Below the pieces are notes generated by a model that worked only from the letters and a program-made list of their open reading frames with translations, was not told where the DNA came from and did no database searches. DNA of 64,000 bases from Yuukianura sp. NJ FZ-2021 (Eukaryota), in assembly GCA_046563655.1 (NCBI GenBank), contig CM102290.1:15004001-15068000 (forward strand). The letters are read 5' to 3'. Position 1 is the first letter of the stretch, and each line of letters opens with the position of its first letter. Shown here piece by piece: positions 6,801-18,818 of the stretch. The translations under genes and the position numbers were made by a program.

Positions 6801-7826
6801 AAAGTTCTCCGATCCGTGAAAAGTATTGATTCATCAAATACTTGCCGCGATCATTGTCCAACAAATGCCCACAAGTATTCATGATTTGACAGAGGCACTC
6901 CAGCTCCTCCGCCTTCGTCTTCTTGACCAACTCCTCGCAACATCGGTGCAAGATGGAGTGTGTGAGCATCTCCAGCTTCCCCAGCTCACCAATGAACTAA
7001 AAGTTATCAGTTACTTAGAATCTCAACTTAAAAAGTACTTTTAACTTTTTAACTTTTAACTTTTTAACTTTTAACTTCATACCTTGATGTTTCCGAGCAT
7101 CTTGCGCTTGGCGAGCAGTTTGTCCTCCTCCTCTTCCGGCGTAAGGCGCTCTGTTCGCTGGTCGTATTGGGCAGAAGCTCGTGTTCTGTTCGTGTACTCA
7201 TCTTGACACTTATTGAGAAGGAGACGGCGGAACGTAGTTGTATGCTCAGGATTTGGAGGATCAAAGTTTGGAACTTTCTTCGACAGTTTCTTACATAGCT
7301 GTGCATACATGCATACGTACTTGGGTTCTTGAAGAGCTTTTTCAAAGATCTGCAAATGCCACCAAAATACAGTCAATCTTCATCAGAAAAAGACAAGAAA
7401 AGTTTGATTTGACTCACTAAAAGTATCACTCCTTTCAGAAGACTTTGCGTATCGAGCCCAACATCAGTCAGAAGCTCATTGCTCAGCCGGTCGAAGGTTT
7501 GCGGCGTAAGCTTGTTGAGAATGGAGCGAACCTAAAGCAACAAAAACCAATCAACTTAGGAATGCTGCCAATACTTGTGTCATGTATCCAGTATCTTACT
7601 TTGCGGAATTTGACATCGTCATTGGACTCTGGAAGTGCATCTCGTTTAATAGCAGAAGGCGGAACCCATCTTTCGGTTACTGATTGGGAGCGTAAGTCGT
7701 CCCTGCAACAAAAACAACTTCCAGTACTTGGCTCAACAATTGTCTAATTTTAAAAAGTACTTGGGCAGCATCTTACCTGCCTCCTAGAGCACGAGAAGCA
7801 CCTCCCTGTACTGCTAACCCTTCCGT
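3870..7826 (-). CDS. eIF4G2: Translation initiation factor eIF4G2 / NAT1 / DAP5 / p97, about 901 aa, 15 coding exons, predicted non-AUG (ACG) start
   Basis: Phase-consistent GT-AG exons: 7826-7777, 7702-7600, 7531-7418, 7349-7083, 6996-6600, 6528-6396, 6287-6082, 6016-5694, 5613-5445, 5371-5058, 4985-4854, 4667-4548, 4465-4288, 4128-4004, 3944-3870. MIF4G domain (FRKVRSILNKLTP..IFEKALQEPKY..FRRLLLNKCQDE..KMLGNIKFIGELGKL), DAP5-type motifs (RWVPPS, GTGPGVI, DELSLRP), MA3 and W2 regions (KWKE..DYPGKGKALFQVNQWLLWLEQ). No N-terminal eIF4E-binding region. AATAAA at 3535-3530. Confidence 0.95.
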
Positions 7827-8452
7827 TGTTGGTTTATGTGCCACGGCGTTAAATAAAGGTGTACGACGGTTAACTGGAGACGTTGACGAAGGAATGATGG
7901 ATCAACAACAGCACAAACCCTCAGCACAAGTAAATTCTGGAACAGTCAACAGTAGGAGAGTTAAAAGTCTATGTATATTCTAGTTAAAAGTGACGACGTG
8001 ATCAGGGAGATGAGATTGCAGTCAACTTCCAGGAATAGAAATGACGTCACTCTCATCCAATCACATGCATCATTCCTCTCCACTTGTCCACATTTCCCAT
8101 GTACTAATTAGAGATTGGAAATATTTGAGTGCGCGTTATACGCGAGTGCGAGTAATACGCAGATAAATAGACAATCATCAAAAACTAACAATGCAAGGAA
8201 TGACGACTCGTCTCCGTTATGGTAGACGACGTCAGTTTGACGTTATATCAAGATTAGCCTGTATCCCGTTAACTCAAACCCAACCGGTTATCATGTCTAT
8301 GATCACAATACGGTAGCCAGTTGAACAGGCTGTGATCTCGGTTTAACATAAGTAAAAAGTGTATCCATTCTGCATCTACTAAGTTCCGTACTACACAAAT
8401 TAAGTCTACAATTGACAGAAGATGCATGATGAATGAGTAAGATATGAATTAC

Positions 8453-17218: not shown

Positions 17219-18818
17219 TTAAGCGATTTGTGCGGAATCCTCCCCCGGAGGTACACTTGAATTGTCATCTTCTTCCGAAGACTCTTCATCCTCATGGTTG
17301 AGATGGACGCCGGCTTCCGGAGCAGCGTTGGAGTTTCCAGCGACAGCTGACGAAGGCCGCATGCTCCGAGAAACACGATCACAAAGTTCCTCGTATGTCT
17401 TTCCATCCAGAAAACAAACCAGAATCACCTGACGAATCAAAAAAAGATATTGAAATTGGAATGAAAAAGGGCGGGAAGTTTGAAAGTTGTACCGTCATGT
17501 TGTCACAGCCCAATCCACCCATTTGACAATCCGGAGCAAGACAGCTCATCATCAACTCTTCACAAATTGTCTCCGGTTCCATTCTGTCGGCTATCCGTCG
17601 ACGTACGAACTCCACAGCTTCCTAAAACGAAATCAACACGAACAAGTTAGGTTAAGGAAGAATTTGAAATGTTATGTTGAACGTACTTCGTTGGTGACGA
17701 CGTCCCAGATTCCATCACAGGCCAAAATGATAAACTCCCAGTCTTCGTTAATTTCACGAATTTCAATATCCGGAAGAGCAATGACCATTTGTTGATCGGC
17801 ACCCATGGAGGCATTTCGTTTGAACACAAAATCACCCAAAGCACGAGACAGGGCCAAGTTCCCATTCACTCGGTTGTACTCTACCCAACCACCTAAAAGT
17901 ACAAAGGAAACGATCAAAATGCTGCCAACATCACAAGAAATGCTGCCAACATCGTAACTCGTACAATATCCGTACCTGCTCGACTGATACGGGAAGACTC
18001 TTCTGGATTATTTGGTTTGTGATCTAATGAAAGCGGTTCAGCCCGACCACCGATTGAGCACACAGCTCTGGAATCACCTACGTTAGCCTGCAAACATACA
18101 TTTGAGATAACATTAAAGTGACACGCTATGAAAAGCTGTAGCGGATTGACATTGGACTTACACAGTACAGAGTTTTGTCTTTGATGAGAACTGTAATGGC
18201 AGTGGTGCCTGCCAATTCCTCTCGCATATTCTCATCTTGTTGCATGGCATCATCGAATTGAAGAAAACCCTGGAAACACAGTTCGATTAATAATCGTTTT
18301 CTGATCGTAGGGTAAACGTTGTGAGGATGATGTAAATCGTTTACCTGTTTCACCGCCTCAGCGATGTTTCCTCCTTGGTACTCGGGACGCTGGACAATGT
18401 ATTTGTGCAAGTGATTCCCAGCGTGAATAGCAACTCTGCTTCCTAATCACCAAAAAAATGACGTAACTTGATTGGACAGAGTTCGTTTTAAGTGTTGTCG
18501 GTTGACGATTACCTCCGTGTCCGTCGTACACTGCGAAAAATGCAGAAGTCTGGTCATCTGGAATGGCGAGAATGTGAGTATGAGCATCCTCCATTGTCAC
18601 TCGCCAGCCCTGCATGCAACTGGAACCGACCTGGAATCATTCCAACCAACAGTAATGCATATGTTACCAAGCATTGGTCGTCGTAACCCAATAAATGTGT
18701 AATCGATTACTCTCATGATTGAAGTCAATTAGTTTGTGTGTGGACTTACTTTGTACATGTGATTTTGTAGGACGGAGGACTCCTTGGCCGTGACAGGTTC
18801 TGATAACGTTTGTCCCAT
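17219..18818 (-). CDS. PP2C/PPM Ser/Thr phosphatase (T23F11.1/Ptc2-like group with [10 protein letters not shown]-terminus)
   Basis: Spliced motifs [74 protein letters not shown] and GLGCDNMT, with an acidic tail. Gly2 fits an N-myristoylation consensus. Confidence 0.95.

Follow-up and report, generated by a model that had tools for sequence, protein, structure and literature searches.

An ACG codon as the probable translation start of a springtail eIF4G2 gene

The DNA considered here is a stretch of 64,000 nucleotides (nt) from Yuukianura sp. NJ FZ-2021 (assembly GCA_046563655.1, contig CM102290.1, positions 15,004,001 to 15,068,000 of the forward strand), which is called the window below and to which all coordinates refer. 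Its minus strand carries, from approximately 7826 to 3870, the coding region of an orthologue of eIF4G2 (also NAT1 or DAP5), recognised from stop-to-stop frames between about 7900 and 3900 and from Pfam matches to MIF4G (on two exons, with E values of 4e-23 and 8e-14), MA3 and W2. The domains follow one another in that order, as they do in the transcript-derived protein P0001 and in the open reading frame (ORF) of the springtail-like transcript L002. When the 133-residue MIF4G exon was used as a query, the closest named proteins were the eIF4G2 of the Collembola Orchesella (77% identity) and Allacma (73%), with the transcript-derived proteins P0001 (79%), P0005 and P0006 closer still, and eIF4G1 and eIF4G3 were matched at 40-46% identity, below the 73-77% of named eIF4G2 proteins. 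The long N-terminal region that binds PABP and eIF4E is absent, about 51 residues preceding MIF4G in the window protein. The gene is the eIF4G2/NAT1/DAP5 orthologue of a springtail-type genome.

A spliced model, built by alignment to P0001, P0005 and P0006, distributes the coding region over 15 exons, with about 890 codons counted from an ACG at 7826-7824; the internal splice sites are approximate, and as two of the donors have the non-consensus sequence GTCACT, so is the length. An earlier reading of this DNA, made from the letters alone and referred to here as the original prediction, had proposed that translation begins at this ACG to give a protein of about 901 residues, a figure that the window model does not reproduce but that is exactly the number of codons downstream of the ACG in L002. 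Intron 1 of the coding region (7703-7776, 74 nt) runs from GTAAGA to TTGCAG, its donor at 7776 having been chosen by the spliced alignment, and coding exon 2 (7600-7702, DDLRSQSVTERWVPPSAIKRDALPESNDDVKFRK) is 84% identical to P0001.

An in-frame TGA (7902-7904), 26 codons before the ACG, closes the eIF4G2 frame on the upstream side. It lies in an exon probably starting at 7936, and beyond this stop the frame (SIIPSSTSPVNRRTPLFNAVAHKPTTEGLAVQGGASRALGGR) stays open for 42 codons (7901-7773), the exon ending at 7777 ahead of the GTAAGA donor. The ACG itself (7824-7826) stands in the context ccaacaACGg, with A at -3 (7829) and G at +4 (7823), and translation from it reads (T)EGLAVQGGASR. No ATG occurs in any frame in the 230 nt upstream of it, while the next 240 nt hold eight. 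The first in-frame ATG (7308-7310) is codon 103 of the spliced frame; since MIF4G begins at residue 52-57 in relatives and their first Met comes at residue 104-109, this ATG lies inside MIF4G, and a start there would cost about 50 MIF4G residues, approximately a quarter of the domain. Conservation as protein extends over the 102 codons before this ATG, exon 2 among them. The stretch from the TGA to the end of the exon holds further near-cognates in frame, namely ATC at 7898, ATT at 7895 and ACG at 7883, all in poor context, and a GTG (7842-7844) in the context aacgccGTGg, six codons upstream of the ACG. The original prediction was thus borne out in its in-frame TGA, probably within the same exon (the coordinates being confirmed and the position of the acceptor at 7936 conserved), in the lack of an AUG until about residue 103, within MIF4G, and in the ACG with A at -3 and G at +4 on the minus strand, whereas its scan of start codons had overlooked the GTG. 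The GCCGCC that the mammalian NAT1 motif has at -9 to -4 is found before neither codon, the ACG of the window being preceded by AAACCAACA and its GTG by TTTAACGCC, and the ACG context shares with that motif only the purine at -3 and the G at +4.

Relatives of the start region came from a metagenome scan that gave 37 loci, 13 of which, with the window, make up 14 sequences covering it; in a broad-alignment scan of genome contigs there were 27 pattern matches and no relative among them. Four of the 14 are of springtail type, namely the window, the genomic contigs L022 (very close to it) and L003, and the spliced transcript L002, and the remaining ten are transcripts of a distant type, at about 36% identity (L008, L011-L016 and L019-L021). 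Nine of these ten (L008, L011-L014, L016 and L019-L021) carry in their first ~35 nt, at the 5' end, the sequence CCAAGCT(A/T)..TTGCTTGATTCACTTCTACAAGAG. A search of the literature for the literal string gave no match, and the identification rests on a match of these transcript starts to the 3' part of the spliced leader of calanoid copepods (CopepodSL, 46 nt) published in Table 1 of PMC4664967. Because they begin with that leader, the nine are trans-spliced copepod messenger RNAs with true 5' ends, and their leaders are therefore complete.

When orthologous first exons were aligned, a check that the original prediction had suggested, the ACG proved to be invariant at the start position in all 14 nucleotide sequences. 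In each it precedes GAA GGG (springtail type) or GCT GGA (copepods), and in each the codon before it is ACA or ACG, which gives A at -3 and G at +4 throughout, with the neighbouring codons varying synonymously (GTA/GTC/GTT/GTG, GCT/GCC, GGA/GGT). Elsewhere in the 11 transcript ORFs ACG accounts for 55 of 432 Thr codons (12.7%; range 4-28%), so that its invariance here reflects constraint at the nucleotide level and not codon usage. In several transcripts (L002, L008, L014, L015 and L019) the frame is stopped only 8-17 codons before the ACG. In L002 this stop is a TGA eight codons before the ACG, and the codons in between, TTT GTA CGA GAT AAA CTA ACA, include no near-cognate; in L014 and L015 no near-cognate separates the stop from the conserved peptide except a tandem ACG ACG. 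The copepod leaders (61-127 nt including the spliced leader) contain an ATG in none of the ten, in any frame, and the 550-nt leader of L002 has one, out of frame. A start at this codon would go back at least to the ancestor that springtails share with copepods, and probably to that of the arthropods.

The ATGs downstream also follow a pattern. The first ATG after the ACG in the window (7667-7669) is out of frame, lies in the AGA TGG of an Arg-Trp pair in the context cgaaagATGg, and opens an ORF of seven codons. The same holds in 12 of 12 sequences (the window and 11 transcripts): the first ATG after the ACG is out of frame, 65-83 nt downstream, within conserved [R/K]-W codons (AGA TGG or AAA TGG), with A at -3 and G at +4 and an ORF of 6-8 codons, and between three and seven out-of-frame ATGs (seven in the window) come before the first in-frame one. 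The Arg or Lys codon concerned ends in A in all 12, as if the ATG itself were selected. Passages of Ivanov et al. (PMC3105428) describe how out-of-frame AUGs keep a non-AUG codon the sole productive start, with EIF4G2 as a named example, and the pattern seen here agrees with that account.

The probable start exon (7777-7936) would consist of an ATG-free leader (7936-7827) and the first 50 coding nt (7826-7777). At 7937/7936, 110 nt upstream of the ACG, there is an acceptor-like ttccag followed by AATTTACT; L022 has tttccag followed by GAATTACT, likewise 110 nt before its ACG, L003 has a tttcag site 123 nt before, and the nearest upstream ATGs of both contigs lie beyond the acceptor-like site. 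As that site is shared by all three sequences, with the upstream ATGs beyond it, the TGA at 7904 is probably in the ACG exon. The original prediction had left two acceptors as alternatives, and they fared differently: the one at 7936 is kept in relatives, and the one at 7873 was rejected as a conserved site, the closest relative, L022, having no AG there. Around the ACG, a block of 36 nt that spans the GTG, the ACG and GAAGGG (7818-7853) is 100% identical to L022; just 3' of it the coding sequences differ by four synonymous and two replacement changes, and upstream of it the codon rows show six replacement and three synonymous differences. Changes distributed in this way suit a leader whose initiation context is under constraint better than they suit coding sequence.

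Some further features of the upstream region may be recorded. At 7898-7893 the sequence ATC AT(T/A) stands exactly 72 nt (24 codons) before the ACG, as it does in L022 and L003, and so forms a conserved element of the leader; two transcript proteins, P0005 and P0006, likewise have Ile at -23, and in L002 the frame is closed at -8. Farther upstream, between 8100 and 8042 on the minus strand, six ATGs (8100-8056) are followed by the palindrome TGACGTCA (8049-8042) and an initiator-like TCATTT, downstream of which the ATG-free stretch starts; judged by eye from consensus motifs, this may be the promoter and transcription start region. The interval from 8 to 17 kb of the window has no long open frame, and the next recognisable coding sequence upstream of eIF4G2 is an open frame at 17672-18007, also on the minus strand, containing LSRALGD...ACDGIWD, presumably motifs of a PP2C-like phosphatase.

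At the level of protein, the pattern 0-[E/D/A]-G-x4-G-G-x-S-R (where 0 is the start codon) is common to springtails, copepods and vertebrates. The (T)EGLAVQGGASR of the window is colinear with (M)ESAIAEGGASR of Xenopus NAT1 (P0021) and (V)ESAIAEGGASR of a newt (P0063), and with these two standing in for the human protein, the gapless match to human DAP5 that the original prediction had drawn was supported. The copepods read T AGVIRAGGVAR, read-through models of the newt and of fish V ES..EGGASR, and the M of Xenopus is annotated from a GUG. A regular expression matched 31 of 120 proteins (T in 9, L in 14, V in 6 and M in 2) and then 38 of 98 further ones (T in 24, L in 14). T occupies the start position in 33 of these proteins, all ten named ones being arthropods (a scorpion, two stick insects, two crabs, a shrimp, a leafhopper, two lice and a bug), and L in 28, all 16 named ones being lophotrochozoans (gastropods, a bivalve, a cephalopod, a chiton, a brachiopod and an annelid); V occurs in six, three vertebrates and three starfish, and M in two, the annotated Xenopus protein and P0096. 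About 20 further arthropod proteins that the regular expression missed show TT[DE] by eye (spider-like sequences, ticks, mites, beetles and a barnacle), and P0024, with KTDG, is a chelicerate sequence whose closest named relative is Centruroides, at 83%. The codon families of T, L and V each include a near-cognate (ACG; CUG/UUG; GUG), and a switch of the start position to AUG was not seen in the compared proteins.

There are, in addition, long-form orthologues in which an insert of several hundred residues separates the N-terminal motif from MIF4G, namely P0208 (Drosophila mauritiana, 1527 residues), P0214 and P0079 (1553 residues). P0079 retains ITTTAG, and fly sequences show PITTA(T/S)D near where P0214 begins, which may serve as a lead for the start position in Drosophila.

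From these observations we think it likely that the main ORF of springtail eIF4G2 is translated without any AUG, starting at the ACG at 7826-7824. The claim of the original prediction, that this lineage uses a different near-cognate at the position homologous to the vertebrate GUG, draws support from the ACG in all 14 sequences, the stop in L002, the complete and ATG-free leaders of the copepods, and the Thr of the named arthropods. A 43S complex scanning from the cap would cross the ATG-free leader, and the initiator tRNA would recognise the ACG in its optimal, A-rich context, with A at -3 and G at +4, and insert Met, the product being a protein of about 890-900 residues with an N-terminus colinear with that of the GUG-initiated vertebrate protein. 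Ribosomes leaking past the ACG would be captured by the strong-context out-of-frame AUG at 7669-7667 and then by the further out-of-frame AUGs, so that little N-truncated protein would arise from the AUG at codon 103. The in-frame GUG may add a minor form, six residues longer, and by analogy with the vertebrate gene, as treated in passages of PMC9945437, the yield would depend on the levels of eIF1, eIF5 and 5MP.

Several observations weigh against a start at the ACG. The 33 T proteins give a residue and not a codon, the codon having been read in springtails and copepods; the exon structure upstream of 7777 is probable, on the strength of conservation; and the recurrent spacing of ATC to ACG, together with the Ile at -23, hints at constraint upstream of the ACG. 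Nor was a conserved hairpin downstream of the ACG supported, the RNAalifold result for the 11 transcripts being -3.67 kcal/mol, with +0.29 as the covariation term and a single compensatory pair. Further points concern the GTG at 7844-7842, which could be the principal start here, the ACG being secondary or vestigial. It is the first near-cognate in good context (G at -3, G at +4) that scanning would reach, it is identical in L022, within the invariant 36-nt block, and P0001, P0005 and P0006 have Val or Met at -6, the residue six before the Thr being V in three springtail transcript proteins and M in one. Despite this we hold a principal start at the GTG to be unlikely: the aligned codon is TTG in L003 and in L002 is GTA, which is not a near-cognate and has a stop two codons before it, an equivalent is absent from the ten copepod sequences, and the ACG never varies. 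The six non-synonymous against three synonymous differences between the window and L022 upstream of the block also argue against coding constraint there, and an article in Sci Adv 2026 (PMC13754004) reports initiation of 104% at ACG and 49% at GUG under the mammalian NAT1 motif, a different context that makes these values indicative only. As a universal start the upstream Val or GTG was rejected, given the GTA of L002 and the lack of an equivalent in copepods.

It might also be supposed that an alternative transcript is the source of the main protein, a 5' exon bearing an AUG being spliced in frame to exon 2 (7702) or to 7873 so that the ACG region is skipped or replaced. Many RefSeq-type models of Hymenoptera begin with MPSR joined to DD at the junction of exons 1 and 2 (P0182, P0185, P0189, P0194, P0196, P0197, P0201, P0203, P0205, P0209, P0210 and P0215), and those of Penaeus with MPYR joined to DD (P0171-P0174), another point that tells against the ACG and one which suggests either alternative AUG first exons in some arthropods or annotation artefacts. 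In the window a script search found four in-phase candidates upstream, running from an ATG to a donor, but they are unconserved and their donors weak, and the acceptor at 7873 is the one whose AG L022 lacks. The peptide of the ACG exon is present in four springtail or springtail-like transcripts (P0001, P0005, P0006 and L002), and because its G-G-A-S-R...G-G-R is conserved from vertebrates to arthropods, the ACG exon is translated; the Allacma model with an upstream exon (P0004), moreover, conflicts with the transcript P0006 of a close relative. An AUG-bearing first exon as the source of the main protein is, on this evidence, distinctly improbable. More improbable still, to the point of being scarcely credible, is a start at the in-frame AUG at 7310-7308, although it is the only canonical codon and the one at which the Orchesella model P0003 begins, or at the weak AUC or AUU at 7898 and 7895, although springtail genomic sequences repeatedly show the Ile at -23 and the same distance between ATC and ACG, for the former would delete about 50 MIF4G residues with 102 conserved codons and is preceded by seven out-of-frame ATGs, and the latter are in poor contexts and are ruled out in L002 by the stop at -8.

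If initiation at the ACG is accepted, the codon conserved in springtails and copepods, with the Thr of chelicerates, decapods and insects, would provide a concrete start site for arthropods and would show that what evolution preserved was the non-AUG character of the start and not a particular codon. It would also explain the truncated or invented first exons of arthropod models (Orchesella, Allacma and many insects) and offer a practical fix for their annotation. The original prediction had anticipated that automated annotation would truncate the protein, and this was seen in the Orchesella model P0003, which begins at an internal MYAQLC inside MIF4G; the Allacma model P0004 went astray by way of a false exon, the ACG exon being swapped for an unrelated N-terminus of 130 residues from an invented upstream exon. 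More tentatively, and in the judgement that the case falls a little short of balancing the doubts, the start may be fixed in position across Bilateria as a near-cognate (GUG in deuterostomes, CUG or UUG in lophotrochozoans, ACG in arthropods), with a short out-of-frame AUG ORF conserved in the Arg-Trp codons about 80 nt downstream and with weak, fidelity-sensitive initiation itself the object of selection. Were that true, a selected weak start could act as a sensor of, or an autoregulatory loop for, start-codon stringency, and ACG would be a candidate for the start in insects or in Drosophila.

The conserved GUG of vertebrate EIF4G2 was reportedly described by Takahashi et al. in Genomics in 2005, to judge from passages citing that work, and Imataka et al. 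1997 is likewise said to be a source for the vertebrate GUG start. In a literature search whose scope did not extend to Takahashi 2005, Bradley 2012 or supplements, no ACG start was found stated for any arthropod eIF4G2. An eIF4G2 main ORF lacking an AUG is already known; as far as could be checked, no description exists of ACG as the codon, of its being shared by hexapods and copepods, or of a clade-specific residue at a fixed start position. According to the relevant passages of three sources, vertebrate EIF4G2/NAT1/DAP5 is translated solely from a conserved GUG (PMC9945437, PMC5666671, PMC3105428), which is given for human, mouse, Xenopus and zebrafish (PMC9945437). The springtail and vertebrate genes are alike in being orthologous, in domain order, in the aligned position of the start, from which it is 11 residues to the end of the GGASR motif, in the purine at -3 and G at +4, and in having out-of-frame AUGs before the first in-frame AUG, and they are unlike in the codon, ACG in place of GUG. 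The context differs as well, the mammalian NAT1 motif being a GC-rich GCCGCC(A/G)NN, as passages of PMC13754004 have it, and that of the springtail being the A-rich AAACCAACA ACG G.

Drosophila NAT1 (CG3845) is, like the springtail gene, an arthropod orthologue with a reported non-AUG start, although the fly orthologue (P0208, 1527 residues) carries a long extension at its N-terminus. The original prediction had named CUG as the fly codon, for which no backing was found: as passages of PMC9945437 put it, Drosophila NAT1 uses a non-AUG codon at a position not precisely determined. Beyond this gene family, near-cognate codons that start a main ORF are represented by yeast ALA1 (ACG) and GRS1 (UUG) in passages of PMC5666671, and TEAD1 is named as a non-AUG extension in passages of PMC3105428. 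With these systems the springtail gene shares a functional protein made, as we would have it, from a near-cognate codon, ACG being an established initiator; they are unrelated genes, and it is eIF4G2 in which the codon differs between animal clades at one fixed site.

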